A stretch of DNA of 64,000 nucleotides from Patescibacteria group bacterium (GTDB lineage Bacteria; Patescibacteriota; Minisyncoccia; Phycocordibacterales; UBA918): assembly GCA_038061715.1 (NCBI GenBank), contig JBBTYP010000003.1, positions 12,034 to 76,033 on the forward strand, read 5' to 3'. The position numbers were made by a program, and so were the translations under genes. Positions 322 to 49,824 of this stretch are shown piece after piece. The number at the start of each line of letters is the position of its first letter. Within the stretch, counting starts at the first letter, position 1. Below the pieces are notes generated by a model, which saw only the letters and a list, made by a program, of their open reading frames with translations, was not told where the DNA came from and ran no database searches.

Positions 322-2043
322 TCATTTATTCTTCCCTTCGTTTTCAATCAGTTTCTTGCGGATCATTTGCTGGGCAGCGTTCATGGAGTGCTGATAGTAG
401 AGGCTTTTTACCCCTTGCTTCCAGGCTTGGATGTAGAGAGCGTTAATATCTTTCACTGGTGTGTCAGGAGCTACCATGATATTGAGTGATTGTGCTTGGT
501 CGATGTGCTTTTGTCTGTCTCCCGCTTGTTCGATTACTTTACTTTGATCAATCTCGGAGAAAGTACGATAAATCGCCTTCTCGTCGTCGGTTAGACAAGT
601 GAGATTTTGGACTGAGCCGTCGTTGTCACGAATACTGTCCCAAGTTACTTTGTCATCATGACCCTTCTCTTGAAGGAGTTTTTGTAAAGTAGGATTTTTG
701 ATAGTTACTTTCATCTTGGCGACGTCTTTCACATAACAGTTAGACCAAATCGGTTCGATACCTTGTGACACTTGTCCAAGAATGAAAGCCGAAGAAGTAG
801 TCGGTGCAATCGCAAGAAGGGTGGTGTTACGGCGACCATAACCCTTAAGCACTTCTGGTTCGCCTAGAGTCTTGGCTAGCTCAATAGTCGCAGCATCGGC
901 TTTGTCTTTAATAACTTTAAATACTTCGCGGTTGAGAGTAGCCGCTTCATCACTTTCAAAAGCCAGGCCTTTGGCTTGAAGTAGAGAGTGGTATCCAAGG
1001 ACACCAAGACCGAGAGCTCTATTTGATTTAGCGAAGTTGTACGCTCGCTGCATAAAGTCGAAGGCCCGACGCTTCTCCGGTTCGGTGTGATCGCGGAGAG
1101 TTTCGAGCTTAATGATAAATTCCTCCATCACAGCATCGAGGAAGGCCGTCATGGTTTCTACCAAGTCGGTGTCTTTCCAAGCATCGTAGTGAAGAAGATT
1201 GATAGATGACAAACAACACACGAATGACCAATCTTCTTTGCTTGGTAGCATGATTTCGCTACACATATTGCTAGCATGAATGCGAAGGTTTTTGTCTTTG
1301 TAGACATCAACAGTATTGTTGTTGGCGGTGTCGCTAAACATGATGTACGGATAGCCCATTTCACCTCGGCGTTGAATAATCCTGGCCCACACTTTACGTT
1401 TCTTCTCATCACCCGCAATCATTGCTTCCATCCAGTCGTCCCCTACCGTCACGCCGTGGGTAAGCTTCTGAATAGGGTTGCCTTCAGTACCGATATCAAG
1501 AAACTCCATGATGTCGTCGTGTTCCGCCGGCAAGTAGGGAGAGAAGTGCCCCCGGCGAACTGAACCTTGTGATACCACTACAACGAGAGTTTCAAACAGT
1601 TGCATGAAATGTACTGAGCCAGAAGAAAAACCATTGTCATTACCAATTGTGGCCCCTCGTGCTCGCAGAGCTCCGAAAAAACCCGAACAACCACCACCGT
1701 ACTTACTCATCATCCCTACTTCAGCATTGGTGTAGAGAATACTACCCATGTTGTCGTCGACATAAGAACCAAAACAACTAATCGGTAACCCTTTATCGTC
1801 GCCGAAGTTGGCCCAGACTGGCGAAGCCAACGATATCCAACCGCGCGACATGTAATCGACAAATTTATCAGCAAAACCTTCTTGCTTGAGGTACTTTTCC
1901 GCTGTTTCTGCAATCACACGAATGCGTTCTTCAGCAGTTTGTCCAGGGGCAAGATAACCTCGGGCTAGAAATCCGCGACTATTTTCGTTCAGCCAGTACC
2001 ATGGTTCCATATCAGTTGTTCGGTTATTAATTAATCGCGACAA
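322..2043 (-). CDS. nrdA: Ribonucleotide-diphosphate reductase class I alpha subunit, no N-terminal ATP-cone
   Basis: 573 aa; PISCFGSYVDDNM...KYGGGCSGFF and NMCSEIMLPS active-site-region motifs typical of class I R1; short N-terminus. Confidence 0.85.
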   Translation of the reverse strand: MSRLINNRTTDMEPWYWLNENSRGFLARGYLAPGQTAEERIRVIAETAEKYLKQEGFADKFVDYMSRGWISLASPVWANFGDDKGLPISCFGSYVDDNMGSILYTNAEVGMMSKYGGGCSGFFGALRARGATIGNDNGFSSGSVHFMQLFETLVVVVSQGSVRRGHFSPYLPAEHDDIMEFLDIGTEGNPIQKLTHGVTVGDDWMEAMIAGDEKKRKVWARIIQRRGEMGYPYIMFSDTANNNTVDVYKDKNLRIHASNMCSEIMLPSKEDWSFVCCLSSINLLHYDAWKDTDLVETMTAFLDAVMEEFIIKLETLRDHTEPEKRRAFDFMQRAYNFAKSNRALGLGVLGYHSLLQAKGLAFESDEAATLNREVFKVIKDKADAATIELAKTLGEPEVLKGYGRRNTTLLAIAPTTSSAFILGQVSQGIEPIWSNCYVKDVAKMKVTIKNPTLQKLLQEKGHDDKVTWDSIRDNDGSVQNLTCLTDDEKAIYRTFSEIDQSKVIEQAGDRQKHIDQAQSLNIMVAPDTPVKDINALYIQAWKQGVKSLYYQHSMNAAQQMIRKKLIENEGKNK

Positions 2044-2170
2044 TTATACTTTATCTTAATGACTTGTCTCTAAAAGTGCAGATTTCAAGGCGTGCTAGAG
2101 GTGGGTCGTGAGCCATACTGGACGTATGGTGAACGTCACACTTCGACGCACAACGCTGAAATATGTGCTT

Positions 2171-3484
2171 TTAGAACAAGTCGTCACTGGTGACACTAGC
2201 GGAACGCTTATTGTAGTTGATTGAACGCTTTTGAAAGAAGTCGACATGCTTAGTGGCAATCACTTCGGCGTCAAACCAATCGGTCTCCTCTAAGAGAGCG
2301 TCACTGACTTCGAAGATGCGCGGCATTCCAATAGAAGCCAATGAGTTGTTAAAGCGATGTTTAATGAACTCTTTTACGTTCGCCGCTGGCATGAAGCTGA
2401 GCTCGCCCGCCTCGTAAATCCAGTCAACAATACTACTCTCCGCTTCGTAGGCTTCCCTACAAGCAGTAACGACCCGGTCGCGACAGTCTTGATCAAACCA
2501 TTCGGGATGCTCTTCCTTAATGATGTTGATGACGTCAATCCCAAACATCCCGTGAAGGTTTTCTTCTTTTGAGGTAGCCTCTACCGCATTTGAAATACCC
2601 TTGAAGAGATTTCGGTGTTTGTTAAATGACATTATGATCAAAAACTGAGAAAAGAGTGACACGTGCTCGACAAATAGAGAGAAGAGCATGACTGATTGGA
2701 AATAATCCTTATTTTCTTGGGTTCGGGAGAGTTCAATCACCTTTTCTAAGTAGTCCATTCGTTGCTGAATGACTGGTATGTCTTTGATCTTTTTGAATTC
2801 GTCATTGAGGCCCAAGATCTCCAGCAAGTGGGCGTAGGCATCGGCGTGACGCACCTCCGATTCAGAGAAAGTGGCTCCGACGGCACCGATTTCTGGTTTT
2901 GGCATTTTTTTGTAGATGTCGCCCCAAAAAGTCTTCACTGCTACCTCAATCTGCGCAATCGCTAGCATAGCGTTTTTGATAGCGCCGCGCTCCGCTTCGT
3001 TTACATTAACGTGAAAGTCTTGCACGTCAGACGTGAAGTTAAACTCGGTATGTACCCAATATGAATGACGGATGGCGGTAGTATATTCATAGAGTTCTGG
3101 GTACTCGTAGGGCTTGAAGTTCTGGCGCTTGGCAAAGATATCACGCTCACGTAACTTCTTACGTTCGTTGCGATAGATGATGTAGGCCTTAGCCGTCATG
3201 AAAAAACCCTTCTCCATGAGAGCTTGTTCGACTAAGTCTTGAATTTCTTCCACCGCGGGACTTCCATCGATACATTTGTTGGCTAGTTCACTACCAGTTT
3301 CAGCTGTACCGGCTTGCACACACATGGCGACAACTTTTTTGTGGGCCAGTTCGGCTACTTCGATAGCTGCATCGCGATTGCCTTCGCCTGTTTCGGCCAG
3401 GGCTTTGGCGATGGCGTTCTCAATCTTCACGATATCAAAAGGCCGATGTGAGCCGTCACGCTTTCGAATAGTTTCGATGTTCAT
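2171..3484 (-). CDS. nrdB: Ribonucleotide reductase class I beta subunit (R2) with fused N-terminal ATP-cone domain
   Basis: N-terminus MNIETIRKRDGSHRPFDIVKIENAIAKA...AKAYIIYRNERKK matches ATP-cone (NrdR/NrdA-type); remainder has R2 diiron-site helices (FSESEVRHADAYAHLLE, FVEHVSLFSQF). Confidence 0.8.
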   Translation of the reverse strand: MNIETIRKRDGSHRPFDIVKIENAIAKALAETGEGNRDAAIEVAELAHKKVVAMCVQAGTAETGSELANKCIDGSPAVEEIQDLVEQALMEKGFFMTAKAYIIYRNERKKLRERDIFAKRQNFKPYEYPELYEYTTAIRHSYWVHTEFNFTSDVQDFHVNVNEAERGAIKNAMLAIAQIEVAVKTFWGDIYKKMPKPEIGAVGATFSESEVRHADAYAHLLEILGLNDEFKKIKDIPVIQQRMDYLEKVIELSRTQENKDYFQSVMLFSLFVEHVSLFSQFLIIMSFNKHRNLFKGISNAVEATSKEENLHGMFGIDVINIIKEEHPEWFDQDCRDRVVTACREAYEAESSIVDWIYEAGELSFMPAANVKEFIKHRFNNSLASIGMPRIFEVSDALLEETDWFDAEVIATKHVDFFQKRSINYNKRSASVTSDDLF

Positions 3485-3984
3485 ACCAATAAACTACGTT
3501 AGTAAAAGTAGGATCATCGCGCACGAACGTAATTGGTGGAAGACTGCTGTCTCTACTACAGGCAGCACAATTAGGTTCACAAGCGATGTGGTGAGCTAGC
3601 TAAATTTAATGAGTTGCGAAGAATCGGATGAAAATGACTTGGGTCGTACGATTTGTACGGCGAGGGTTATTTCACTGGACGATAACAAAGCAAATCGTAA
3701 ATTTATCTAGCGTAGGTCGCGACTAACACACCACCATAATGAAATATGGCGTTCTAAACTCGATAGGAGTTTGTGTGTCTTACCTCCGACACACGAGACC
3801 TCGTGTGGTTCCCTTACTATAGCACCGCTAGTTCCTGCTTGGCTATTTTTATGGGTGCCAAACGAGGGCTATTTTGCGTCAACGTATCCTCGAGTGTGTG
3901 GATAAGTTCGATCACCACTCCTATACAAAATAGTTTTGGTTTTTGCCTAGATTTTCAAGTCGCCGAAAGTGTTTCGTGGTATAG

Positions 3985-4022: not shown

Positions 4023-4412
4023 CTATCGACTAAGCCGATCGCGGATCTCGCGCAGGAGTAAGACTTCCTCGGAGGGACTCTTTGGCACTTCGGCTGCCAC
4101 TTCCTTTTTAACGACAGCTGCTTGTGCCTTATTAATACCTTTAACCACCATAAAGATAGCTAAAGCTACGATGATAAAATCGAGCACTGACTGAACGAAG
4201 ACACCGTAAGTCATGGTGGCATCGCCAAGCCGGTAGGCCAGACCAGAAAAGTTTATTCCTCCCATGAGCAGACCGATTAACGGAGTGATGATGTCGGTCA
4301 CTAGTGAAGACACTATCTTTCCAAATGCGCCGCCGATAACCACCGCCACCGCCAGGTCGAGGACATTGCCCTTCATCGCAAAGGCTTTAAATTCTGCAAC
4401 AAATGCTTTCAT
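4023..4412 (-). CDS. mscL: Large-conductance mechanosensitive channel
   Basis: 129 aa; N-terminal [27 protein letters not shown]... canonical MscL TM1 signature. Confidence 0.9.
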
Positions 4413-5751: not shown

Positions 5752-6108
5752 TTACTCTTTTGCCACAAATCCAGCGTACAAGGCTACAATTGCAACCAGG
5801 AGATGCAGGATGTTGTCTGCCCCATTAGTGTGGATGAGTCCGAGCACATCACCACCCATCGCAAAGCCGAGGATTGTCACAAGTGCGTACACCACACCGA
5901 ACACTTTGAAGAAAAGTTTCGCGTGAGCAAGCGAACATGCCGCCCAAATGGCAATCAGACCAGTCGCTAGGTGGATAATATTGTGCAAGGCATCGACCTC
6001 AAAGATACCGAGCAAGTGTCCATCGGTAGTTACTCCAGGCACAAACCCGAGTACTCCAATGAGCACAAACACGATTCCGAATAATTTAGCTAATTTCTGA
6101 ACGTTCAT
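5752..6108 (-). CDS. DUF4383-like small membrane protein
   Basis: 118 aa, 4 TM helices; FEVDALHNIIHLATG motif resembles DUF4383. Confidence 0.5.
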   Translation of the reverse strand: MNVQKLAKLFGIVFVLIGVLGFVPGVTTDGHLLGIFEVDALHNIIHLATGLIAIWAACSLAHAKLFFKVFGVVYALVTILGFAMGGDVLGLIHTNGADNILHLLVAIVALYAGFVAKE

Positions 6109-6260
6109 ACATTAATCTCTTAAATGATAAACCCTTCGCTTCTATATAAATTGTAGCAGTCCTGTTCTACTTGACTAGAGGGTTTAAGGACTATCTCGAC
6201 AAACCATCAAAAAACCATTAGTATGTCCCGCACGTGTCCTCGTGACACATATTATAGCAT

Positions 6261-6333
6261 GGCGGCTATAGTACAACGGTTAGTGCATCGGTTTGTGGTA
6301 CCGATAATTCGGGTTCGATTCCCGGTAGCCGCC
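6261..6333 (+). tRNA. tRNA-His (GTG) with genome-encoded G-1
   Basis: Cloverleaf folds with 8-bp acceptor (G-1:C73), D-stem GTAC/GTGC, anticodon stem TCGGT/ACCGA, loop TTGTGGT, T-arm TCGGG-TTCGATT-CCCGG; no CCA encoded. Confidence 0.85.
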
Positions 6334-6339
6334 CTCGTA

Positions 6340-6367
6340 GTAAGAATCCCCTCACGGGGATTCTTAC
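6340..6367. terminator. 12-bp perfect hairpin between tRNA-His and convergent minus-strand gene
   Basis: gtaagaatcccc-tcac-ggggattcttac; weak T-run, so terminator function is uncertain. Confidence 0.45.
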
Positions 6368-6379
6368 GTTCGTTGTCAT

Positions 6380-6853
6380 TTAAGACTCAAAATCGTTAAG
6401 TATTTTTAGGAAGCTTTGTTGTGTGGCTTTAGGAATTTGTGGATGGTTGAGCAATTCAATCTTTCCCTTGCGTTTAATGATTTCTTTTACCTCTCCGAAG
6501 TAAAACCCCTGAACAGTTGCCAGAAAAAGATAGGAAGGATTCCAGCTTTGACTCATGCGTTTTACGATACTGAGAACTTCACTATTTTTAAGTGTTTTTC
6601 GATATTTTACTTCGATCAGATGGACAACCTTTGTCTTGTTATTGATGACAGCGAAATCTGGTGCTGTTCGAAGAGCTTCCACCATCTCATCATTCTCGCC
6701 CTGCCCCCTACCTACCAACTCAGGAATTATCTTCTCATAGCCAAATTCCAGAACAGTAAACTGTCCAGTCGAACGAAGCATTTGAGCGAACACTGTCTCA
6801 GCAATTTTTCCTTTAACTAAATTCCTCGCAAAAGATACTTCGTTATTTTTCAT
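6380..6853 (-). CDS. Hypothetical protein with PD-(D/E)xK nuclease-fold-like motifs (YraN/Hjc-like), immediately downstream of the type IIG RM gene
   Basis: 157 aa; GKIAETVFAQML...PDFAV...HLIEVKYRK arrangement (E...D...E-x-K) reminiscent of restriction-endonuclease-like fold. Confidence 0.35.
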   Translation of the reverse strand: MKNNEVSFARNLVKGKIAETVFAQMLRSTGQFTVLEFGYEKIIPELVGRGQGENDEMVEALRTAPDFAVINNKTKVVHLIEVKYRKTLKNSEVLSIVKRMSQSWNPSYLFLATVQGFYFGEVKEIIKRKGKIELLNHPQIPKATQQSFLKILNDFES

Positions 6854-6872
6854 AGTATTTATTTATACTTTA

Positions 6873-9281
6873 TTACTTAAGAAAACCTAAGTCGAATACT
6901 TGCGGTCTTATCTTCTCAGACAACGACTTATACGCTAGCTCAAAATCTTCAAACGATGCTTCTGGTAAACTCGCAGTCTCATTACGTTTTTTAAGTGCAT
7001 TTCGAATCTGATACCATCCTACATCTGGACGATTGAGCTTAAGGGCTTCTCGCACAGTATAGGGGTCAGTGTGCTCAAAATAAGCAGACCAAAGTTTCCG
7101 ACCCTCCTCAAGTACCACTTTGGATTCTACTGACAAATTTTTATCTTTAAGATACTTAACCATAAAATCACTCTCGAAGCGCTCTGATGTTCCCACTTCA
7201 CTTTCAGTGAAAGGAATAAAGTGATTCACTATGCTCCATTTTTTTCCGTTCCATTCCAAATCATTTGCACTTGCAGTAAGGTTACTACCATTAAATAGCA
7301 TCCAAATTAAACAGTCATTTTTAAACTCTTCACTCAAATCTTCTGTCGGTTGCAAAAACTGGTCTCTGTCATTTTGCCAAGTTGGCTTAATGATGCGTCT
7401 AACGGTAAACATTACAGCCGCCTTCCACAAGTCTGTTGGTGTAACAAAAATCGTACCAGCACTTCCAAAACCAGAAGAATATATAGATGTTGTTTTGGAA
7501 TGTTGCACATCACTACCTTGGAATACTAAACATGCAATGGCATCGTTAGCCCACTTAGTACCGCGCAAATCCTTTGTGACAGTTGCTGGTGATACAGCAT
7601 TTTTAAGGGGTATAACTTCTAAATCATTTGCCTTCGGTCGAACTATCCAATTGCCCAATAAACTTTCCTTGGGCGCATTGTAAAAAATCTTCTTCCCAAT
7701 TGGTCGAGCGTCATTATCTAAGACTTCAGTAGAAATTTCTTCAAACTGACTTATTTGACCATCTCCATGACTAGTACGCCAAATAAGGAAACCAATCGGG
7801 AACACACCTTTAATCCCGTCGAAAGATTTACTAGGAACAATGAAGCCACCCATATAATCTGCATCCCACTGTTGGCGAAAATCTTCAAAATTTGGAGAAT
7901 TTACATATTTAAGTTTACTGAACATTGCTAATGTCGCATTTGGTAGTTCTTTAGCAAACCGCACCATAAACTGCACAAAAAGCTCGCGAGCTGCGTAACC
8001 TTGCTCATCCATCAATTCTGCAACTTTTGTTTTAGAAACATTTTTCTTTGACTCTGAACGTTCATTATCTGAAATGTTTTCTGCATTCATTGCTTCGGCA
8101 TATGGAGGATTTATCAGTACTAAAATTTTCTTACCACTTTTAATAGCTCGACGAAGTGACTCCGGCAGCTTATTTGTTAGAGTGTAATCAATTTCTCCTG
8201 AATCAGAAATATCATCATTTAGATAATCATACTGAAAACGTTCAGCTGCGACACATGTCTTAGTAGCCTTCATAACATCTATATCAGCTTGATCGAGCGT
8301 ACTCATATAGATATTACGATGGTTACTATGCTTTACCTCGAGGTTTCCTACCCCGCAACACATATCCCATACAATGTATTCATCTTGCCATCCCTCCCCA
8401 AGAGTCTCGGTGAGTTTATTGTACGCAGCATCTACAACATGGAGCGGGGTGTAATAAGCACCCTTAAAGCTACGCTCATCGAGAGGAATAAGACTATCTC
8501 GTCTCTCTAGAAGATAAGTACGGTACTGCTCTTTTGGTGGCTTGTGATAAATAGCCCAAAAGCGTCGGTATCCTTCTTTGTTACTCAATTCGTATAACTT
8601 TCCATTGAGCGAGAAGACCGGCATTCCATCCTTATGAAGAAGCTCAGCAGGCATATCCTTGATTGAGGAAACCGTACCGTCATGCATTATGTCTGCAAAA
8701 AACAAAAGAGCGTAGTCTTCTTCCTGAACCCCAGCCAGCTCACGACCAATCATTTCAACCCAACGATCAAACACTTGTTTTAGATTGCTTGGAGTAATCT
8801 GAGTTCGGACAATCTCTCCTTCCTGAATAGCATTTTTAACAGCATCAATGAATTCCTGTTCGTGTGTCTTTATATTAAATGACACCATATAGGTACCTAT
8901 GTGCGCTGATACAGCTGCAAGTGCCTCTGGAGTTACATCACTAGCTGACTTACCCCATTTAATATCTTTCCGCTCCAAGACAGGTAAAGCGTCGATAGTC
9001 TTCATGATTGCTGCCTTATTCGTATCAATAACAGCTAAAAAAGGTGGCAGCTCTTCTCCATGATTTAGCCACTCTTTTGCGTAGTGCAAAAGTTGAGTAA
9101 ACATTGAAAAGCTACTGCAGGCACTACCAGCTTTTGCTTCAAACCATATTTCCTTAGTTTGAATATCAATTAAGCCCTTTTGATAGGCTTTTAGTCCCAG
9201 CGCTTTAATATAAAAATCCTTAACGTCCTCTTCACTACTGGCATTCTGAAGCTTTTCGTATAAAGTCATACTGAAAAGCAT
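6873..9281 (-). CDS. Fused type IIG/IIL restriction endonuclease plus N6-adenine methyltransferase (MmeI-like)
   Basis: 802 aa; N-terminal D-x9-E-x-K (LIDIQTKEIWFEAKAG) as in MmeI nuclease; methyltransferase motif I VWDMCCGVGNLE, GAYYTP, motif IV LVLINPPYAEA; C-terminal ~300 aa putative TRD. Confidence 0.75.
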   Translation of the reverse strand: MLFSMTLYEKLQNASSEEDVKDFYIKALGLKAYQKGLIDIQTKEIWFEAKAGSACSSFSMFTQLLHYAKEWLNHGEELPPFLAVIDTNKAAIMKTIDALPVLERKDIKWGKSASDVTPEALAAVSAHIGTYMVSFNIKTHEQEFIDAVKNAIQEGEIVRTQITPSNLKQVFDRWVEMIGRELAGVQEEDYALLFFADIMHDGTVSSIKDMPAELLHKDGMPVFSLNGKLYELSNKEGYRRFWAIYHKPPKEQYRTYLLERRDSLIPLDERSFKGAYYTPLHVVDAAYNKLTETLGEGWQDEYIVWDMCCGVGNLEVKHSNHRNIYMSTLDQADIDVMKATKTCVAAERFQYDYLNDDISDSGEIDYTLTNKLPESLRRAIKSGKKILVLINPPYAEAMNAENISDNERSESKKNVSKTKVAELMDEQGYAARELFVQFMVRFAKELPNATLAMFSKLKYVNSPNFEDFRQQWDADYMGGFIVPSKSFDGIKGVFPIGFLIWRTSHGDGQISQFEEISTEVLDNDARPIGKKIFYNAPKESLLGNWIVRPKANDLEVIPLKNAVSPATVTKDLRGTKWANDAIACLVFQGSDVQHSKTTSIYSSGFGSAGTIFVTPTDLWKAAVMFTVRRIIKPTWQNDRDQFLQPTEDLSEEFKNDCLIWMLFNGSNLTASANDLEWNGKKWSIVNHFIPFTESEVGTSERFESDFMVKYLKDKNLSVESKVVLEEGRKLWSAYFEHTDPYTVREALKLNRPDVGWYQIRNALKKRNETASLPEASFEDFELAYKSLSEKIRPQVFDLGFLK

Positions 9282-9312
9282 AGCATAAACTAGAAATGCT
9301 GGTTATTTTAAG

Positions 9313-9768
9313 TTAGATAGCAGCTGACTCAAGACGGGCTTTGAATAAGCTTATGATTCCACTTTTCTCTAATTTATAATTCTTGCCGTTGAAAGCTATT
9401 GAAGTCCCCTCCTCTTTGGCTAAATAAACTAAAATTGGTACATATCTTACTGGTCCATCTTTACCGAAAAAAATTGCAGCTATTATCCTTAAGCCCCCTG
9501 ATTTATCGGATTTTGGTTTTGTAGTTACTTGTCGAAACTTACACACCTGCACTCTCCCGCCAGTCTCATCCACTTCTTCAAGTAAAACAGTTTTTGAGGT
9601 TGGCACATGGAATCTAGGGCTATTTCTTAATTCCCAAAACTTACCCACCAAAAATTTATGATGTGCTTTTACGTCGAGCTTAAGACTCTTTATCTTTTTT
9701 AAACGTTTTTCATCCAGCTTCAGGAACGGTCCTTCTGCAAATTCCATAAATTTAAGCAGCAAGCGCAA
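9313..9768 (-). CDS. Hypothetical protein, putative toxin partner (RelE/ParE-superfamily-like C-terminus), overlaps upstream gene by 17 nt
   Basis: 151 aa; GGLRIIAAIFFGKDGPVRYVPILVYLAK resembles RelE/HigB-type core; translational coupling with Panacea-like gene. Confidence 0.3.
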   Translation of the reverse strand: MRLLLKFMEFAEGPFLKLDEKRLKKIKSLKLDVKAHHKFLVGKFWELRNSPRFHVPTSKTVLLEEVDETGGRVQVCKFRQVTTKPKSDKSGGLRIIAAIFFGKDGPVRYVPILVYLAKEEGTSIAFNGKNYKLEKSGIISLFKARLESAAI

Positions 9769-10276
9769 ACAAACCTGTTTTCTGCAGTTTATTCAGAGAA
9801 ACCTCTTCGGGCTCCTCAGCAACATCCTCTTCATTAGAACGATATTGTGCGTTCTCAAAATCAACAAGGTGATGGTAATCAGCCATCAAATAAACTGGAT
9901 CCTGGTGAGCAAGGTGTACGATTTGATTAACATTCAATTCTGAATAGCGTAAACATGTATTTTCAATTGATTGAATTTTCTTTGCATCCAAAAACTTTAG
10001 CTCCATTTCTCCAGCACCTATAAAATTTCCATCTGTAATGGTGAGAAGATTCTCAGAAACTAACTCCTCGATTGCCTTTTGAGCAATTTTGTTTATTGGG
10101 GTTGGACCGAAGGTATTTTTAATATATGAAACACTAGTGAGTCTTTCATTAAATTTCTCAAAGTAATCAGCTTCACTGAAAAAGCACAATTTCCAAAGTT
10201 TTGTTTCTTTCAACATCCTTGGATGATTTGCTGCTATATACCAAATTAACTCTTTAAATTCTTCTTTCTTGCTCAT
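9752..10276 (-). CDS. Panacea-domain (DUF4065/SocA-like) putative antitoxin
   Basis: 174 aa; KLWKLCFFSEADYFEKFNERLTSVSYIKNTFGPTP matches KLqKLlYfa...GPv core of DUF4065. Confidence 0.45.
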   Translation of the reverse strand: MSKKEEFKELIWYIAANHPRMLKETKLWKLCFFSEADYFEKFNERLTSVSYIKNTFGPTPINKIAQKAIEELVSENLLTITDGNFIGAGEMELKFLDAKKIQSIENTCLRYSELNVNQIVHLAHQDPVYLMADYHHLVDFENAQYRSNEEDVAEEPEEVSLNKLQKTGLFALAA

Positions 10277-10452
10277 AGTTTTATTATACGCTAAATACTT
10301 AATAAGTTTTCAGCTTCTCCTGTTGACCCAACAGTACCATATAATTCATATTTGTCTAAGAAAAGCTTGGTATGTAGAGAGTTGGGTCATTTCTGTGCTC
10401 AAACATAGTTCTAACTTCCTCTGCACCGTCGTCCAACCTGGTGGTATGTTAT

Positions 10453-10491
10453 AAAAATACGGCCCCGTTCTCACAGGGCCGTTTTAGTTTA
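10453..10491. terminator. Bidirectional intrinsic terminator downstream of ParB-like gene
   Basis: aaaaat-acggccc-cgttctcaca-gggccgt-tttagttt. Confidence 0.6.
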
Positions 10492-10506
10492 AGATCAGGT
10501 TCCGAA

Positions 10507-11649
10507 TTACCTGGCGGCTCGTATGATACGAGCCGAGCGAGCAAGAATGGAAGCTATCCGCTCAAGATCGTCAGCGACAACTGCACCGTGTTGGATCGTA
10601 AGTTGTTTCAGATCACCGGTTATATTTTCGAGACTGAACAACGCTGTCACTCGTTGGGCTCGTTCGTCCAGGGTTAAGATCAAGCTTTTGCCCTGATCCC
10701 AGGAATCAGAAGGTTTCTTCTGCCTTGAAATACCTGAGGCTCGACGATGGTGACCAGCCCGGGCCATGAGTTTTTGAACTCCCAGATTACCTTTCTTGTA
10801 ATCAATAAATGCTTGTACTTGCTCTTCATCAGGGAGATCAGCGACTTGTTTGATGATCGAAAACGGAATTGATGGATTATCGGCAACATGTTCAAGAGCA
10901 TGTTGACACAATCGTTCGCCAGCAATTTTTCGATTCGATAACCACACCGAATTGTTTTGCCCCAGACTCTCGGACACCTGCGCCTGTGTAAAACGGACGC
11001 CAGTATCTGGACAGGGTTCAAGCAGCCGTCTTGCCAGATCGATTTCTTCCCAAGGAGTATGTCCTTCTCGATTGAAATTGGCCACTGCCGATGTGAGCAG
11101 AGCCTCGTTGCGACCCTTGTCCTTAGACGTCTGCACTGTCGCCCGGAAAGGAACGCCAGCGATCTTACAGGCTCGAAGCCGTCGTTCGCCATCTCGCAGC
11201 TCATACTTCCAATCAAGATCGGGAGTTTCAACAACCAAACCGGGTTGAACCTGCCCCCGATGTCTGATCGAATCTGCCAAGGCATTGATACGCTCCTGAT
11301 CAAAATGTTTCCGCGGCTGATCTGGCAGTGGTGCGATTTGATCAACGGGGATCTCCAGCACTCGATCACCAAGAGTGATGTGCTGAAGCGGCGTCTCCAC
11401 CTCCTCTATAACGACACCTCCATGGAATTCACATAAACCAGTTTCATAATCTAACTGACCTTTGCTCCGATCATTTTCAGGGAGCAATAAACACCTTCGA
11501 CACAAACGCCATTTTGATTTGCATTTGCTGCGGCAGCAACCGTCCTGGTTTTTAGAGACAATGCTTGTTAGTTGACGACAAATATCCAAAGTCGCCGGTA
11601 CATGTGTAAACACGCACTTATGTGTCTCAATAACTCTCTGTTCAGACAT
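10507..11649 (-). CDS. Stand-alone ParB-like nuclease-domain (ParB/Srx) protein with Cys-rich N-terminal region; gene is GC-rich relative to flanks
   Basis: 380 aa; IPVDQIAPLPDQPRKHFDQERINALADSIRHRGQVQPGLVV...LRDGERRLRACKIAG is the ParB N-terminal domain signature (GERRxRA); N-terminal ~90 aa has many Cys (CCRSKCKSKWRLCRRC). Confidence 0.7.
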   Translation of the reverse strand: MSEQRVIETHKCVFTHVPATLDICRQLTSIVSKNQDGCCRSKCKSKWRLCRRCLLLPENDRSKGQLDYETGLCEFHGGVVIEEVETPLQHITLGDRVLEIPVDQIAPLPDQPRKHFDQERINALADSIRHRGQVQPGLVVETPDLDWKYELRDGERRLRACKIAGVPFRATVQTSKDKGRNEALLTSAVANFNREGHTPWEEIDLARRLLEPCPDTGVRFTQAQVSESLGQNNSVWLSNRKIAGERLCQHALEHVADNPSIPFSIIKQVADLPDEEQVQAFIDYKKGNLGVQKLMARAGHHRRASGISRQKKPSDSWDQGKSLILTLDERAQRVTALFSLENITGDLKQLTIQHGAVVADDLERIASILARSARIIRAAR

Positions 11650-11809
11650 GTCAGCTCCTTTCGATTTGCTATTCCAGAGATACTTATACTCCCATCAATA
11701 TAGCGTGTCAACGTAACAGTAAACTAGTACTTAATTATTGCTTTAGCGCCAGTGGTAATGTTTGTTATCCAACCATACACTTCTGACAACCTCGTTGTAT
11801 ACTTTCACT

Positions 11810-12913
11810 ATGGAAAGATCCCGATTATTATTCCCGTTAGTAATTCTGAGCACCGTGGCCTTGCTCATGGGTGCTACAGTATATTTTTACTTCGAAGGCT
11901 TGGTCGAGCCAGCACCTACTCTAGAAGCTGTTCCCGTTCCATCATTAGAACTAAAAAAGCCTGGTGATTTAGATCTCGGCGGACTCTTTATGATTGGGCA
12001 CTGGGCTAACACACCAGTTGCGAGCACTACTGCTCTTATTAAAGAGCATCATTTTGGAGGAGTGATTATTATGAGCGGCCCAGGAGATCCACTGGAAATT
12101 GCAGAGTGGGTCAAGGAATGGAAGGCGGCAAGTGAGAGACCACTTATAATCGCTATTGACCAAGAGGGCGGCCCAGTTAGTCGACTTAAAGGGACTGGTT
12201 TTATCACAACTGGACAACGAGATATTGAAACGACTAAGGAAGCTTACCAAGTCGGGTTTAAGCGCGGGCAGGAGTTAGCCTCGCTTGGAATCAATATGAA
12301 CTTTGCTCCCGTGCTTGATACCGCTAAGAATCCTGATTCTTTTATGTTTGAGCGGGTGTTCCCAGACGGCAGCGAAGCTGCCGCCCTCGCCGTCGCCATG
12401 GGTAAAGGTATGGAAGATGCAGGAGTGACCCCCGTTGCCAAACACTTCCCCGGCCATGACGACACTACCGATGATTCTCACTTCACCCTACCAACCGTCT
12501 CGATTTCAAAAAACGAACTGCCAGATTTCACAACGAACTTCACCGACTATTTAAAAACTGAACCTTTGGCTCTAATGACGGCGCATGTACTTTTCCCCCA
12601 GATTGATAGCTACCCCGCCACTCTGTCTCACTTCTTTCTCACCGATTATCTGCGGGGTGAACTAAAATTCGCGGGTGTAATTGTGACAGACGACATGAGC
12701 ATGAACGCTATCGATAGTACGTGGTCAACCGACCAAGCTGCCTTAATTTCACTTCAGGCCGGCGCTGATCTTATCCTATTTGCGGCGGAGCCAAACTCGG
12801 CCCTAACCGCGCTGAAACGCCTTGAGTTTGCCGTCGCAACGGGCGAGCTAACGGCAGCTGACGCGGAAGCTAAAAACACTCGAATTGACTCTTTGCGTCA
12901 GCCTTTGGATTGA
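11810..12913 (+). CDS. nagZ: Beta-N-acetylhexosaminidase, glycoside hydrolase family 3 N-terminal domain (NagZ-like), membrane-anchored
   Basis: KHFPGHDDTTDDSH and VIVTDDMSM motifs of GH3/NagZ; start placed at in-frame ATG (MERSRLLFPL...) rather than upstream TTG at 11762. Confidence 0.75.
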   Translation: MERSRLLFPLVILSTVALLMGATVYFYFEGLVEPAPTLEAVPVPSLELKKPGDLDLGGLFMIGHWANTPVASTTALIKEHHFGGVIIMSGPGDPLEIAEWVKEWKAASERPLIIAIDQEGGPVSRLKGTGFITTGQRDIETTKEAYQVGFKRGQELASLGINMNFAPVLDTAKNPDSFMFERVFPDGSEAAALAVAMGKGMEDAGVTPVAKHFPGHDDTTDDSHFTLPTVSISKNELPDFTTNFTDYLKTEPLALMTAHVLFPQIDSYPATLSHFFLTDYLRGELKFAGVIVTDDMSMNAIDSTWSTDQAALISLQAGADLILFAAEPNSALTALKRLEFAVATGELTAADAEAKNTRIDSLRQPLD

Positions 12914-16739: not shown

Positions 16740-17513
16740 TTACCAAAGAATCCTTACAATTTCTCCCAGTAACACATCCATATCTTGAGAAAAATTTACT
16801 TGTGTTTTTGTTGGCAAAACCTCCTTCTTTTGAATTGTTGTGTGAAGGTGACCATCAGCTATTTTCCGTGAGGAATTTTGAAGGTGATTAAATGTTTCCT
16901 TAATACTTTTTGCAGTTTTGAAATTGTTTGCTACTTTAGTAAAAGTCTGATACCCAAATATCGGAGCAACATGGTCTAACACGGTTCGTACCAGAAGTAT
17001 CGTGGAAATGTAATTCTTGTTTGCATAGTTAAAATTAATTTCTTCGCAAATTCGAACTAAGCGACTCAAATCGAAATCGTTACTTTTTACTACCTTAAGT
17101 TGGTTAATACGCTCTGGATCAATATAAATAGAGTTGTGATCTGGTGTTTGTTTTTGGGTGAGTGACTTAGCTGCTTCTGGTCTAGCTAATTTTGCGGCAT
17201 CACAATCAGAAAGCGCTAACTCAATTTCAATTAATCGGAGCCTGTCCGTTGGGATCATCCACGTGTCCTTCCGTACCAATCGTACTCGGGTGTCTTTCTT
17301 TAAAGTTGCACGAACAAAATCACTACGGATATTACCCAGTCCAGCAGAGGCGTATGCAAATTTCAAATCTTTGAGTGCAGCGTTACCACCACCGTACTTC
17401 GAAAAAAAATACAAAAAGCAAAGAATGCGTTTAGCTCGAGTATCGACATACTCGAGTGCGCATTTTGTAAACTCTGCCAAATCGTAACTATCTTCCATAA
17501 AGCATGTTCTCAA
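16740..17513 (-). CDS. Hypothetical protein, possible HEPN-like C-terminal domain (Rx4H motif RTVLDH); last gene of 4-gene cassette
   Basis: 257 aa; no recognisable family; ...ISTILLVRTVLDHVAPIFG... fits HEPN Rx4-6H; overlaps upstream gene by 26 nt. Confidence 0.3.
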   Translation of the reverse strand: MRTCFMEDSYDLAEFTKCALEYVDTRAKRILCFLYFFSKYGGGNAALKDLKFAYASAGLGNIRSDFVRATLKKDTRVRLVRKDTWMIPTDRLRLIEIELALSDCDAAKLARPEAAKSLTQKQTPDHNSIYIDPERINQLKVVKSNDFDLSRLVRICEEINFNYANKNYISTILLVRTVLDHVAPIFGYQTFTKVANNFKTAKSIKETFNHLQNSSRKIADGHLHTTIQKKEVLPTKTQVNFSQDMDVLLGEIVRILW

Positions 17514-28554: not shown

Positions 28555-30066
28555 TTGAAAATGAACCATATAATCAAACGTCCCCGGCTATCGCTGTGGG
28601 ACAAAGTCAAGGCTGCCACCCGTTGGTGCCTTGTCCCTCCAATCCCTGAAGAGGTGTTAGTCCGTGAAGCCGACTATCGTCGCGGCCTGGATAACTTCGG
28701 CCCAATCTACGGCCGATGGCTCGCTCTGCGAGCAGTCGTAGAAGCTGAAATCGAAGCTTTTTTGAGTGCGATCTACGTCCGCCGGCAATATCAGCCGGTG
28801 CGACACGTCTTGTTCGCACGAGAACGCAGGCTATTTGTAGTTCTCATCGGCACAGTTGTGCTGATATTTGCTGCTAATGCCAACGCGGAAAAGCGGCTGC
28901 TGCCGCAATTCTCCGTCTCGATTGATGAGTTGTCGGCTTCGGTGACTGATTTCCTAATCAAACCAGACAATTGGCTGAGTGGTCCGGCTTCCCTCACGGG
29001 CAGTCGAGCCTCCGTCCTCGGTGCGTTTCATTACGCTAAAGAGGCTCGCTATGCTTTTGCTGCCAATAATGCTGAACGCGACCGCTTGGTCGCCAACGGC
29101 ACTTTGGTAAAGCTTGAGGGTCCATACCTTGAGCTGATTGACGTGTCGAGCCCTTACGTCTTGCCGGTGGTGGCGAAATCCACCAATCGACTCGGACAGC
29201 AATACGCTGAGCAGGGTTGTGGCAAATTGAAAGTTTCAAGCGGCATGAGACCGCTCGATTTTCAAAAGACAATCAAACACGGCTCCAGCCTATCGGTTCA
29301 TCCGACTGGTATGGCGGTTGACTTGCGTCGAATCGTCCCCGAGAACAAAGAGCAAATCACTTGCCTTAACTGGCTCGCGAAAACGCTCCAAGCCATCGAG
29401 GCCGACGGTCGAGTCGACGCCACAGCCGAGACAAGACCGGAGCGACACTTTCATGTGGTCGCCGTGCCGCATGTCTACGAAGCCTGGCTGGCGACTTTAC
29501 CGCCACAACTCGATCCTGACGTGAAATGGTTGGCAACGACGCTTCATTTTGAAGCCGCACCAAACGAACTAACGGAAGGCTATCGGGCCATCGCGTGGGT
29601 AATCCGCAATCGGGTGCGTTCGAGCGAATTCCCCAACACCACCATCGAGGTGGTAGCTGAGGGAGCCGCTGGTCTTAGTACCGGTGGTTGCCAGTTCAGC
29701 TTCATGTGTGACGGTAAGCAGGAGGATATCTATGAACCCTGCAAGACGCCGAACCCGCTCATGACGCGGTATTGGTTAAATAAATGCGCTGAACGTTGGG
29801 AGGTGGTGGTCAACATCGCCAAACAAGTTCTCGCTGAACCAGAAACCAATGACCCGACTGGGGGTGCGGTATTGTATTACGCCGCATCCATGCCAAAGGC
29901 ACCCGCTTGGTCAATGCGGAGGGTTGAGACAAGGAGGCGTGAAGACGGTTCCAAGTATCAAATCGCGCTTGCTAATGGGGACTTGAAAACAGGAACCATC
30001 AAGCAAATCGGTAGCCATATTTTTGGCTGCTCGATTTTCCGTGGCAAAGACGCCTGTCGATCATAA
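28555..30066 (+). CDS. Membrane-anchored two-domain peptidoglycan hydrolase: peptidase M15 (VanY-like) plus SleB-like cell-wall hydrolase domain; GC-rich (~58%) gene
   Basis: 503 aa; SSGMRPLDFQKTIKHGSSLSVHPTGMAVDLRR (SxHxxGxAxD zinc-site pattern of M15); C-terminal YRAIAWVIRNRVRSSEFPNTTIEVV...QFSFMCDG...GGAVLYY matches SleB family blocks. Confidence 0.65.
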   Translation: MKMNHIIKRPRLSLWDKVKAATRWCLVPPIPEEVLVREADYRRGLDNFGPIYGRWLALRAVVEAEIEAFLSAIYVRRQYQPVRHVLFARERRLFVVLIGTVVLIFAANANAEKRLLPQFSVSIDELSASVTDFLIKPDNWLSGPASLTGSRASVLGAFHYAKEARYAFAANNAERDRLVANGTLVKLEGPYLELIDVSSPYVLPVVAKSTNRLGQQYAEQGCGKLKVSSGMRPLDFQKTIKHGSSLSVHPTGMAVDLRRIVPENKEQITCLNWLAKTLQAIEADGRVDATAETRPERHFHVVAVPHVYEAWLATLPPQLDPDVKWLATTLHFEAAPNELTEGYRAIAWVIRNRVRSSEFPNTTIEVVAEGAAGLSTGGCQFSFMCDGKQEDIYEPCKTPNPLMTRYWLNKCAERWEVVVNIAKQVLAEPETNDPTGGAVLYYAASMPKAPAWSMRRVETRRREDGSKYQIALANGDLKTGTIKQIGSHIFGCSIFRGKDACRS

Positions 30067-30077
30067 GGAGAAGGAGT

Positions 30078-49397: not shown

Positions 49398-49709
49398 TTA
49401 GATAAATTCCACCGGGTGATTTTTTTCACCCAACCGCTCCTTGAGCGCCGCAATGATGATTGTTTTATTTTTAATGATTTCAGTTCGCAAAAGACTGGAG
49501 GTTTTTATATAAACTGTCTTTGAGGAGACGTTATATGTGAACTGCGAAGAAATTACTCCCACTCCTACCACCTTACCAACCACCTCAACCACCTCATTTA
49601 TTACAGATTGTTGGGGTGGTTTTATTAGTTTCTTATAGCGCAGTAGAAGATTGCCTAGTTGTTGATTGTTGTGTGTTGGATCTTTTTTCTTCATACAAGA
49701 CTTGTGCAA
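49398..49709 (-). CDS. DUF721-like small protein downstream of dnaN (candidate DciA-type helicase operator)
   Basis: 103 aa; genomic position typical for DUF721/DciA; sequence-level assignment is weak. Confidence 0.4.
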   Translation of the reverse strand: MHKSCMKKKDPTHNNQQLGNLLLRYKKLIKPPQQSVINEVVEVVGKVVGVGVISSQFTYNVSSKTVYIKTSSLLRTEIIKNKTIIIAALKERLGEKNHPVEFI

Positions 49710-49824
49710 ATGGCACCCTTCTTCGTTGTCCGGCGCAAAATACTCCTCAATGTACCAATGTACACCTCGTCGTATTTTGCTTGTACGCCTCGAATTGCAC
49801 TCATTTGTACAAGTCTCGTCATAC

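Follow-up and report, generated by a model that had tools for sequence, protein, structure and literature searches.

A probable composite defense cassette carrying a fused restriction-modification enzyme and a PanAT pair beside tRNA-His in a Patescibacteria group bacterium

Introduction

A run of AT-rich minus-strand genes beside tRNA-His in a Patescibacteria group bacterium raises the question of what these genes amount to together and how they came to lie there. The window, as we call the whole stretch of DNA analyzed, is 64,000 nt long (GCA_038061715.1, contig JBBTYP010000003.1, positions 12,034 to 76,033). An earlier note had described a defense-type, horizontally acquired mosaic cluster spanning 6380-11649. 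Its five minus-strand ORFs agree exactly with the ORF listing; its extent has been revised, the compositional island being 6367-10436. This island is probably a composite, horizontally acquired defense cassette made of independently moving modules, and that degree of confidence applies to the explanation as a whole: the modules, the enzyme mechanism, the role of the PanAT pair, recombination at junctions, and the separateness of a neighboring ParB-like gene. What the sequences show directly is anatomy, composition, conserved motifs, folds and the independent spread of the modules; enzyme activities, defense function, toxicity and the route of assembly are inferred.

Layout and composition of the cassette

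The four genes at 6380-10276 have GC contents of 38.8% (157-aa protein), 39.7% (802-aa enzyme), 37.9% (151-aa ORF, PanT) and 35.2% (PanA), compared with 45.4% for the window (backbone about 46%) and 47-49% for the flanking genes; relative to the 55 other window ORFs, their z-scores run from -1.7 to -2.8 for GC and from -1.3 to -2.4 for GC3. The restriction-modification (RM) and toxin-antitoxin (TA) genes are thus AT-rich as had been claimed, at 35-40% GC and below the local backbone, and in a tetranucleotide check 8-11 kb stands out as a distance outlier. The genes are separated by gaps of 4, 31 and 19 nt and terminators flank both ends, an operon-like layout; 6367-10436 appears to be one co-directional minus-strand transcription unit.

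Module 1 would consist of a degenerate small-ORF element followed by the PanA and PanT genes with their own conserved promoter; module 2 would be a self-contained single-polypeptide RM enzyme of type IIG/IIL architecture; and module 3 would be a 157-aa PD-ExK-motif protein, which in these bacteria accompanies RM genes in general on their 3′ side. These modules are found apart elsewhere (related loci L012, L100-L104, L111-L119), which bears out the mosaic, acquired character of the cluster. L012 has the 802-aa and 157-aa genes without the TA pair, its element, 802-aa gene and 157-aa gene being contiguous (77% nucleotide identity); the window has PanAT between element and 802-aa gene. The TA pair adjoins other RM systems in L100-L104, and in L111-L119 the 157-aa gene is found after an XhoI-type RM and after a true MmeI enzyme. 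No island-free relative was found, as all 11 of 11 contigs with identical flanking proteins share the same arrangement, so we infer insertion from composition and module distribution.

The 802-aa restriction-modification enzyme

The 802-aa single-chain RM-type enzyme is encoded at 6873..9281 on the minus strand; its true start is probably M5 at 9269, giving 798 aa. Along the chain lie a PD-ExK nuclease (residues ~1-135), a helical/beta linker (~135-265), a gamma-class N6-adenine methyltransferase with NPPY (~265-500) and a C-terminal recognition domain (~500-802). D39/E48/K50, FYTP, DxxxGxG and NPPY are invariant in the family over 25-78% identity, with complete or near-complete invariance of E17 and Q63 over the same range. 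The nearest folds are DrdV, MmeI and BpuSI, with DrdV matched at 3.6e-6 in a PDB profile search. The previous label, "MmeI-like fused type IIG RM enzyme", stands as to fused type IIG, by architecture, catalytic motifs and fold. It fails as to MmeI family membership: MmeI_N, MmeI_hel, MmeI_Mtase, MmeI_TRD and MmeI_C were matched by none of 48 diverse family members, and the genuine MmeI homologue in L117 matches all five of these Pfam models.

The family has no significant sequence match to the type IIL single-chain enzymes MmeI/DrdV, and the 802-aa protein shares 8-13% sequence identity with them in fold alignments. It is about 120-230 residues shorter than MmeI/DrdV family enzymes (919 and 1029 aa), its D-to-E spacing is 8 residues rather than 9, and Q63xxxY67 is conserved in its family, unlike in MmeI/DrdV. 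With respect to BpuSI/Eco57I-type IIG enzymes, the Pfam models Eco57I and N6_Mtase give the family either sub-threshold matches or none, and PADLOC yielded only weak type I/II methyltransferase models (E 6e-5 to 9e-3), none of them for a fused enzyme. Eco57I-type systems usually have a separate methyltransferase, which is absent from the cassette.

The family is large, with over 5,000 proteins from at least 582 species in several phyla, yet has no Pfam model and is labelled "hypothetical". Its distribution is patchy and includes plasmids, viral contigs and defense-island contexts; some ~10-kb plasmids carry it as their sole RM-type gene. It is mostly stand-alone: 32 of 84 loci lack any same-strand neighbor within 120 bp. 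No family is common to the 61 close neighbors. Members of a core clade share 70-76% identity within and between phyla, recognition region included, and their GC follows host GC (r=0.90). This conservation is unusually high for an RM enzyme, and far exceeds that of MmeI homologues, each of differing specificity. Together with the host-tracking GC it is more readily reconciled with long residence under strong constraint than with a rapidly evolving defense gene.

As to mechanism, the C-terminal recognition domain would bind a specific site, the gamma-class methyltransferase would N6-methylate adenine at the recognized site and so mark host DNA, and the N-terminal PD-ExK domain (E17, D39, E48-x-K50, Q63) would cut unmodified incoming DNA, with predicted cleavage resembling that of MmeI, DrdV and BpuSI. 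Because the cassette has no second methyltransferase, host protection probably needs the 802-aa protein alone.

The 157-aa companion and alternative readings of the enzyme

The 157-aa protein (6380..6853, minus strand) had been called PD-(D/E)xK; the call persists in weak form, from a sub-threshold HSDR_N_2 match (E=0.002) and from a PD...EVK motif that can be read in the sequence. At 90% identity the protein falls into a cluster of 23 members. Copies at least 90% identical sit 6-19 nt past three unrelated restriction systems: the 802-aa gene (window, L012), R.XhoI (L111-114) and the true MmeI enzyme (L117-119). The blastn match between L111 and the window (87% nucleotide identity) is confined to this gene.

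Two other views of the enzyme were weighed. It is unlikely that the 802-aa protein acts as a lone DNA (or RNA) methyltransferase whose role is epigenetic or housekeeping-like and not restriction, its N-terminal nuclease-like domain being non-catalytic and serving DNA binding or regulation: the invariance of D39, E48 and K50, and the full or near invariance of E17 and Q63, is not expected of a dead domain, the best fold matches of the full protein and of the N-terminal domain alike are active fused RM enzymes, and the patchy spread over plasmids, viral contigs and defense-island contexts also argues against it. It is highly improbable that the 802-aa and 157-aa proteins make up a two-component RM system, with the 157-aa PD-ExK protein acting as the actual endonuclease or as an indispensable subunit. 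The two genes are co-oriented with 19 nt between them, both are kept in L012 (86% identity for the 802-aa and 90% for the 157-aa protein), and the PD...EVK motif is intact; against this, only one of 84 loci of the 802-aa family (L012) has the 157-aa gene, whose copies also follow an XhoI-type RM with its own REase and a complete MmeI enzyme, and occur in L115/116 without any RM.

The PanAT toxin-antitoxin pair

PanA (9752..10276, minus strand) is a 174-aa putative antitoxin with a Panacea domain, as had been assigned: PF13274 SocA_Panacea matches at 1.9e-7 and, with 32.4 bits, exceeds its cut-off of 25.7. In NCBI the protein carries the name SocA-domain antitoxin, and it is 84% identical to PanA of L100 and L102. 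PanT (9313..9747, minus strand) is a 144-aa putative toxin. The mechanical ORF is 151 aa long (9313-9768) and opens with TTG; the overlap of the two genes reported before depends on that start, and the ATG at 9747, used by 9 of 9 homologues and by all gene callers, leaves a 4-nt gap instead. We found no match to PanT in Pfam, PADLOC, PHROG or NCBIfam, and only 9 homologues among 5.8 billion proteins. It directly follows a 174-aa Panacea gene in every context examined, and the adjacency is kept in 5 of 5 independent loci, beside other RM genes. A conserved promoter sequence, TAGCGTATAAT, lies 8-10 nt upstream of the PanA start codon (ATG) in the window as well as in L100 and L102; in the window its TATAAT -10 box is at 10283..10288 on the minus strand.

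PanA and PanT are a conserved mobile pair, resembling known PanAT systems in that a small unrelated protein is encoded directly downstream of the Panacea gene and that the pair has a conserved promoter, is mobile and keeps antitoxin-first order. In a survey antitoxin-first order was the commoner (943 systems vs. 325) (PMC8832971), and it is the order in the window. By our own reading of the alignment, a candidate GP(T) occupies the expected place of the Panacea GPV signature. The window pair differs from known PanAT in its putative toxin partner, a rare family without detectable similarity to known toxins, and in a conserved small ORF ahead of window-type pairs at every locus. Eight of 25 PanTs assayed were non-toxic in E. 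coli (PMC8832971). The pair would probably act as an addiction or abortive-infection module stabilizing the cassette.

Junctions and assembly

A ~75-nt small-ORF element marks the left boundary of the AT-rich cassette; the window copy (10360..10436, minus strand; E=1.8e-18 by nhmmer profile) is degenerate, frameshifted and has a TTG start. We found 13 distinct copies, only in related cassettes and co-oriented with the cassette genes in 13 of 13 cases (four in L012; two each in L011, L111 and L117). The element shows a codon-like substitution pattern; no RNA covariation, hairpin or Rfam match was found. Directly 5′ of the RM gene lies the conserved motif TTTATGCTATGCTTTTCA (9272..9289, minus strand), a promoter or 5′-UTR-like junction, which also precedes 802-aa homologues (L011, L012), an HsdR-like gene (L100) and the true MmeI gene (L117); L012 homology starts at 9289. 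The slot from this motif to the 157-aa gene holds the 802-aa enzyme, a genuine MmeI-family enzyme or an M+R.XhoI pair. At the other end, a GC-rich hairpin of 12 bp separates tRNA-His from the 157-aa gene stop (6340..6367; about -21 kcal/mol, z -6, both strands); it came from a terminator scan and is a probable terminator; position 6367 is also the end of homology to other 157-aa loci, the L111 blastn match stopping there.

Integron arrays, dif modules and defense-island hotspots are similar in having co-oriented short element copies between unrelated gene cassettes, and unrelated RM payloads swapped between conserved junctions. Differences from this group are that the small-ORF element has coding-type substitutions without hairpin or covariation, and that no integrase or Xer-type site was found. 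The cassettes also sit at different places from genome to genome and hence are not flanked by host core genes. Most likely the cassette would have been assembled by recombination at shared junctions: the 75-nt element, the 20-nt motif TATGCTATG and the 157-aa gene.

The right-hand neighbor is tRNA-His (GTG; 6262..6334, plus strand; ARAGORN, Rfam tRNA 60.3 bits), and the cassette does adjoin it, ending 45 nt away. A "tRNA-adjacent hotspot" had been proposed, and the classical form of that idea has an integrase-mediated element entering the tRNA-His 3′ end, with more DNA, including the ParB-like gene, accreting later. The short distance and the shift of composition at that point favor it, and RM-bearing islands are known in groundwater Patescibacteria (PMC12455944). 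Several observations make it very unlikely. Pfam annotations show no integrase, recombinase or transposase within 10 kb either side (absence of an integrase had been noted before); no repeat of the tRNA-His 3′ end occurs within 5900-12200; tRNA and cassette are convergent, with the hairpin between them; no tRNA lies near the related cassettes L011, L012, L100-L104, L111 and L115-L117; and the ParB-like gene is compositionally native. With neither an integrase nor a tRNA-derived repeat, recombination at shared junctions is likelier than tRNA-directed integration.

The ParB-like neighbor

The gene at 10507..11649 (minus strand) encodes a 380-aa ParB/Spo0J/Noc-type protein (ParB_N 3e-15, TIGR00180 3.7e-22) with a conserved Cys/His-rich N-terminal extension. 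Residues 94-235, aligning over ParB_N and the HTH, match PDB structures of Spo0J, ParB and Noc, and the protein retains an intact GERRLRA arginine patch, as in the chromosomal ParB/Spo0J/Noc CTP-dependent clamps. It differs from these in lacking a ParA partner in the window, in the 90-residue extension with its nine invariant residues (H10, C12, C24, C38, C43, C50, C53, C73 and H76), in C-terminal 140 residues without a match, and in belonging to a rare, non-syntenic family. Its Rho-independent terminator (10459..10482, minus strand; a 10-bp stem then ATTTTTAT; -20 kcal/mol, z -5.5) separates it transcriptionally from the cassette.

The gene had been regarded as GC-rich (~52%), distinct from the backbone and encoding a ParB-like nuclease domain. 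Its GC is 48.8-48.9% (GC z +0.78, GC3 z -0.28), equal to that of nagZ (48.9%) and mscL (49.0%), and 51.4% is reached in one 500-nt window only. Given its native composition, own terminator and ParB/Spo0J/Noc-type N-domain and HTH, the gene is not a GC-rich second acquisition, nor is the nuclease label supported. That it is nevertheless a functional part of the island (e.g. a ParB-family DNA-sensing or nuclease protein) acquired separately from a higher-GC donor is rather improbable. It adjoins the cassette, ParA is absent, PADLOC gave a weak match (PD-Lambda-5_A, E=0.007), and the rare family (about 9 close homologues) occurs in varying contexts, one homologue lying near a MutH and C5-MTase pair. 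Yet GC and GC3 match the backbone, the terminator is its own, the best matches are to chromosomal Spo0J, ParB and Noc over the CTP-binding N-domain and HTH, and in no other locus does it co-occur with the 802-aa, 157-aa or PanAT modules. Native in composition, the ParB-like gene is probably a separate neighbor of the cassette.

Judged from sequence, PanT may be a toxin of a new family, and the 802-aa enzyme belongs to a large unannotated family.

Locus layout and composition

Five minus-strand ORFs lie beside tRNA-His(GTG), itself at 6262-6334 (+) by ARAGORN, exactly where the earlier note had placed them: a 157-aa ORF (6380-6853), an 802-aa ORF (6873-9281), a 151-aa ORF (9313-9768), a 174-aa ORF (9752-10276) and the 380-aa ParB-like ORF (10507-11649). 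The window genes come from a groundwater Patescibacteria MAG (Hainich contigs) and have NCBI locus tags AAB618_00245-00255. The four genes nearest the tRNA are AT-rich, at 38.8, 39.7, 37.9 and 35.2% GC respectively in a window of 45.4% (z -1.7 to -2.8 against 55 other window ORFs). This part of the compositional mosaic proposed earlier stands; the other part, a GC-rich ParB-like gene unlike its backbone, does not. That gene has 48.8% GC next to neighbours nagZ (48.9%) and mscL (49.0%), with z of +0.78 for GC and -0.28 for GC3 against 55 other window ORFs. Gaps among the AT-rich genes are 4, 31 and 19 nt, so that they look like a single transcription unit; an extra promoter-like motif is found inside the cluster. 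The ParB-like gene is followed by a strong terminator hairpin (10482-10459, -20 kcal/mol, z -5.5), and a second hairpin is located between tRNA-His and the 157-aa gene (6340-6367).

Elsewhere in the window, a cell-wall hydrolase/DUF5715 protein and a DUF4230 protein are encoded by a high-GC pair at 28555-30767 (+; 54-58%, z +2.1 and +3.3). Low GC was seen for a 257-aa ORF without family match at 16740-17513 (-; 38%) and for dnaN with its adjoining 103-aa ORF at 49398-50919 (-; 39-40%); the lowest-GC stretch of the window (50.0-52.0 kb, 36-40%) is next to dnaN. Ribosomal protein L19 (14273-14869, -) has a C-terminal tail of ~70 residues rich in Ala, Glu and Lys.

The ParB-like gene

The 380-aa protein matches ParB_N (3e-15) and TIGR00180 (3.7e-22), its residues 94-235 match the N-domain and HTH of Spo0J, ParB and Noc structures, and the GERRLRA box (GxxRxxA) is retained; the domain set of ParB/Spo0J proteins (CTP-binding N-domain, GxxRxxA box and HTH) is complete. 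The protein had been described as having a ParB-like nuclease domain, the name under which Pfam formerly listed this domain. We saw no sign of nuclease activity in what is a Spo0J/ParB/Noc-type N-domain with HTH. Its 90-residue N-terminal extension, conserved in the ~9 known homologues, has invariant H10, C12, C24, C38, C43, C50, C53, C73 and H76, a Cys/His pattern that looks like a zinc-binding module. The cognate ParA of a ParB/Spo0J partition system is missing from the 64-kb window, which has no Walker-A ParA (KGGxGK[ST] ORF), and no ParA adjoins the homologues at L105 or L108, two loci of other genomes. Close homologues number only about nine, in non-syntenic contexts. The protein appears to be an orphan variant of ParB, unusual in kind and confined to a few Patescibacteria. 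We argue that its gene is outside the cassette because its composition is native, it has its own terminator and it does not occur together with the other modules elsewhere; as the gene is rare, this conclusion is not entirely firm.

A predicted single-chain RM-type enzyme outside the MmeI family

Library scans of the 802-aa protein gave a sub-threshold N6_Mtase match, weak methyltransferase models only from PADLOC and PHROGs, and no NCBIfam match; phmmer found no match in the PDB, and there a family profile reached only the methyltransferase core of DrdV (3.6e-6). Alignment of 48 members with 25-78% identity showed invariant residues at the catalytic motifs: D39, E48 and K50 (PD-ExK triad), G274 and T278 within FYTP (methyltransferase motif X), D306 and G310 (motif I), and N391-P392-P393 within NPPY (motif IV). 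In the N-terminal alignment E17 and Q63 are also invariant and Y67 nearly so. The AlphaFold model (pLDDT 88 for the full protein, 90.7 for residues 1-268) was matched as a whole by Foldseek to DrdV (5e-12), BpuSI (2e-9), M.BseCI and MmeI (6e-9); the N-terminal fold is nearest the nuclease domains of BpuSI and DrdV. A gamma-class N6-adenine methyltransferase and then a C-terminal TRD follow in the same chain, and no further methyltransferase gene is nearby. Restriction and modification domains thus share one polypeptide with the catalytic motifs of both intact, as in type IIG enzymes. The motifs and the DrdV, BpuSI and MmeI folds bear out the fused type IIG architecture claimed from the first reading, and we predict RM activity for this type IIG/IIL candidate.

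The same claim had likened the protein to MmeI. Enzymes of the MmeI family modify one strand only and cut about 20 nt from their site, and membership has been defined as full-length similarity to MmeI at BLAST E<1e-20 (PMC2731913). Like them, the 802-aa protein has a PD-ExK triad (D70, E80 and K82 in MmeI; PMC2731913), at D39/E48/K50, and a gamma-methyltransferase and TRD in one chain. Unlike them, its family matches none of the Pfam models by which such similarity is now judged: when the window protein and 48 diverse relatives were tested against MmeI_N, MmeI_hel, MmeI_Mtase, MmeI_TRD and MmeI_C, neither the window protein nor any of the 48 matched any of the five, whereas the control, a 910-aa enzyme from L117 (a locus with the 157-aa gene), matched all five. 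Membership in the MmeI family was therefore rejected. BREX (PglX), type ISP and type IIB were also considered and discarded; they rank under DrdV and MmeI, and no ATPase/helicase domain, S subunit or BREX genes go with the 802-aa protein.

Distribution and conservation of the 802-aa family

In a protein collection clustered at 90%, we found more than 5,000 relatives. The best 120 of these have 67-88% identity over essentially full length, and none of those 120 has a precomputed Pfam domain. Relatives are 'hypothetical' in every naming source, RefSeq plasmid records included, and no model in Pfam, NCBIfam or PADLOC covers the family. When representatives at 50% identity were searched exhaustively with HMMER, E<=1e-30 gave 603 clusters and E<=1e-3 gave 1,895. 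With one genome scanned per species, relatives occur in at least 582 species, cultured isolates included. Isolates with a family member include Fluviibacter phosphoraccumulans SHINM1, Acinetobacter sp. SH20PTE14, Kaistella gelatinilytica G5-32, Dyadobacter psychrotolerans AR-3-6, Limnohabitans sp. Rim47 and Pedobacter miscanthi. Hosts include Patescibacteria, Bacteroidota, alpha-, beta- and gamma-Proteobacteria, Sulfurimonas, Leptospiraceae and Ignavibacteria; eight viral contigs also have a relative. Some members of ~520 aa are missing the first 270 residues.

Two homologues are on ~10-kb plasmids, Acinetobacter pYUSHP14-3 (6846-9242, 63% identity) and Fluviibacter pSHINM1 (1106-3493, 58% identity). 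Each is annotated 'hypothetical protein' and is the only RM-like gene of its plasmid, where no other methyltransferase or endonuclease gene was found. These plasmids of cultured bacteria are convenient experimental material for the family.

We examined the neighborhood of the gene at 84 loci. No same-strand gene is within 120 bp at 32 of them, and the 61 close neighbors have no common family, so that a conserved partner was rejected. These neighbors are housekeeping genes mixed with assorted mobile and defence genes (Mrr_cat and IS200 twice each, zeta, HipA, Fic, PemK, AbiU2, DUF4411 and DUF559). MmeI homologues are alike in this respect, having no consistent neighbors and no extra methyltransferase (PMC2731913). 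At one Candidatus Nomurabacteria locus (L005 11003-13507, JACKGC010000001.1) two successive pairs of HTH-Panacea antitoxin and small ORF are just downstream of the 802-family gene, which is preceded by the gene of an Mrr_cat plus Zn-ribbon nuclease; RM genes here associate with PanAT of different lineages.

Within the core clade the most conserved part is the methyltransferase motif I region and the most variable is residues 500-650, expected to be the recognition domain. Pairs from the core clade are 72-76% identical when drawn from one phylum and 70-73% when drawn from two. The top cross-phylum values are 91% (Bacteroidota-Proteobacteria) and 85% (Bacteroidota-Patescibacteria), and for several Patescibacteria copies the nearest relative belongs to a different phylum; transfer between phyla has clearly happened. 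Recent transfer from one low-GC donor might account for such conservation, and was rejected because gene GC tracks that of the flanking host DNA (r = 0.90, slope 0.62, range 32-58%). Most copies are compositionally host-adapted yet ~70% identical over 800 residues, which is unusual for an RM enzyme.

The candidate PanAT pair

The 174-aa protein (PanA) matches PF13274 with 32.4 bits (Pfam cut-off 25.7), which upholds its earlier assignment to Panacea. It is not a SocA orthologue, since the NCBIfam SocA equivalog scores only 19 bits against a cut-off of 190. Its partner PanT has no family match in library scans; the only PDB matches, weak ones to designed HEAT-like repeats (E about 1e-3), were treated as noise. 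Nine homologues of PanT were found among 5.8 billion sequences, and all but two fragments measure 144-146 aa, so its true start is taken as the ATG at 9747, giving 144 aa. PanT is encoded directly after PanA in the window, and likewise in all the independent contexts that were retrieved (L100-L104 of other genomes). At those loci the pair adjoins other restriction genes, either an HsdR-like helicase with a fused MTase/S protein or DUF4268; identity to the window proteins is 84% for PanA and 81-87% for PanT, and the promoter TAGCGTATAAT is conserved.

Published PanAT systems combine a promiscuous antitoxin domain with many toxin families, the antitoxin-first order being commoner (PMC8832971). 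The window pair is alike in its Panacea domain, conserved bicistronic partner and antitoxin-first order. It fits PanAT toxin-antitoxin systems, and by this analogy PanT is a putative toxin.

The 157-aa protein

The 157-aa protein is a candidate member of the PD-(D/E)xK nuclease superfamily, which is characterized by a core fold with an E...(P)D...(D/E)xK motif. An APDF...LIEVK motif is visible in it, HSDR_N_2 scores 18.6 bits (E=0.002; cut-off 25), and no match was found by sequence in the PDB. Comparison with the N-terminal domain of the 802-aa protein by hhalign was not significant. The 90% cluster has 23 members, and no homologues were found on plasmids. Among 802-family loci the gene occurs only at L012, a Saccharibacteria locus (90% identity). 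Other copies with at least 90% identity lie 6 nt after R.XhoI in an operon with an Eco57I-family methyltransferase (L111-114), at the same 6-nt distance behind a bona fide MmeI-family enzyme (L117-119), or after two small ORFs with no RM gene at all (L115/116). Because it follows XhoI-type, MmeI-type or no RM genes, and only one other 802 locus has it, the 157-aa protein is a generic RM-gene companion rather than a partner dedicated to the 802-aa enzyme. Between the window and L111, nucleotide homology (87%) is limited to this gene and about 20 nt on each side.

L111 (1-14474; GCA_043771035.1, JAYVHQ010000063.1) is a dense defence island in another MAG. It encodes Fic, zeta toxin, APH, the M.Eco57I-family, R.XhoI and 157-aa genes, a Gabija-like pair (UvrD helicase and AAA_15/OLD-TOPRIM) and a large serine recombinase.

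Shared junctions and the tRNA-His site

By blastn, the 802+157 pair of L012 is 77% identical in nucleotide sequence to window 9289-6372. In L012 the 802 gene is immediately preceded by a 74-nt segment that in the window lies upstream of PanA (10434-10361), so that PanAT in the window has this segment on one side and the RM gene on the other. In the 1.38 Mb of DNA that was fetched, a profile search found 13 distinct copies of this repeated ~75-nt element: in the window (10360-10436, -), at L012 (131-206, 927-1001, 4589-4664 and 5864-5938), at L011, where two flank the 802 gene (929-1002 and 4136-4210), at the PanAT loci L100 (3599-3674) and L102 (7308-7382), and at the 157-aa gene loci L111 (1875-1929 and 4432-4505) and L117 (458-532 and 4425-4492). 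All copies are at loci that have either this PanAT, the 157-aa gene or one of the nearest relatives of the 802 gene, and viral contigs have none. They are always co-oriented with the cassette genes and mark the 5′ side of accessory or defence cassettes; every PanAT locus has one about 75 nt upstream of PanA.

The element has an abrupt 5′ homology boundary at GGGCGACGTCG. Intact copies encode a 37-aa ORF, MGDVVEDVRTVFEQLNDTTIYIPTFYMDKEQSYGIVS, annotated by gene callers and without a Pfam match. Its substitution pattern is coding-like, with codon differences numbering 162 synonymous to 254 non-synonymous in the ORF frame, as compared with 47/410 and 59/406 in the two alternative frames; several copies, the window's included, have no start codon or are frameshifted. 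A structured RNA was rejected for now: RNAalifold gave no compensated pairs (-6.4 kcal/mol), and Rfam no match. L012 also has a LOOT RNA (Rfam) at 12701-12816 (+; 60.2 bits, gathering score 46.4).

Another junction motif, T(T/C)TATGCTA(T/C)G(C/A)TTTT, ~20 nt, directly precedes the start codon in RM genes that are unrelated to one another: the 802 gene in the window (9272-9289, -), its homologues at L011 (~1605) and L012 (~5993), an HsdR-like gene at L100 (~4743) and the true MmeI gene at L117 (~5245). Its position suggests a shared promoter or 5′-UTR junction. Because it precedes RM start codons, the true start of the 802-aa ORF is probably M5 (9269), giving 798 aa. These results show that unrelated RM payloads fill the same slot between shared junctions, and that the window cassette is composite. 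This is the strongest support for the piecemeal assembly put forward in the earlier note, whose general view of a mosaic, horizontally acquired defence cluster is upheld.

That note had also proposed a tRNA-adjacent hotspot without an integrase. The lack of an integrase was confirmed, with no recombinase or transposase either within 10 kb on either side of the cassette. The hotspot is not supported: a tRNA-targeted integrative island has an integrase and a distal repeat of the tRNA 3′ end, no direct repeat of the tRNA-His 3′ end was found, and related cassettes elsewhere are not near any tRNA. Shared junctions, with no related cassette near a tRNA, make recombination at common sequences a likelier route of assembly than integration directed by a tRNA. 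No island-free relative was found, identical ParB-like and DUF4383 proteins being only on contigs of the same population in identical arrangement; ParB homologues at 50-73% identity are in non-syntenic contexts, and a metagenome scan with the ParB-like protein gave one weak match. For this reason we infer, rather than observe, insertion of the cassette at this tRNA-His-proximal site.

A broader proposal, which we hold to be unlikely, is that the ~75-nt element, the TATGCTATG junction motif and the 157-aa protein form an undescribed cassette-exchange system of Patescibacteria. Payloads (802-aa, MmeI-type, XhoI-type or type I-like enzymes) and PanAT modules would be swapped between conserved 'bookends' with no integrase, and the small putative nuclease may act as a homing or recombination-initiating enzyme. 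The 802-aa family would be a large class of single-chain RM enzymes, so far uncharacterized, whose unusual conservation would reflect shared or constrained specificity.

Significance

Defence islands and RM-bearing islands are already known in Patescibacteria, and the island as such is ordinary. What is new is, first, a family of one-protein RM-type enzymes that is very large, unusually conserved and so far unannotated, and second, a modular cassette architecture in Patescibacteria whose marks are the repeated small-ORF element, the 5′ motif common to RM genes and the small putative nuclease gene. The 802-aa family has all the hallmarks of a one-protein RM enzyme, a function predicted from motifs, folds and genomic behaviour. 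Its characterization would fill an annotation gap and might give new MmeI-type restriction specificities; for that type, the shared recognition domain has already provided the framework on which new specificities were engineered (PMC4833311). The apparent swapping of unrelated RM systems between the same short junctions and the same small putative nuclease gene is a concrete, testable handle on how defence genes are shuffled in streamlined, integrase-poor bacteria.
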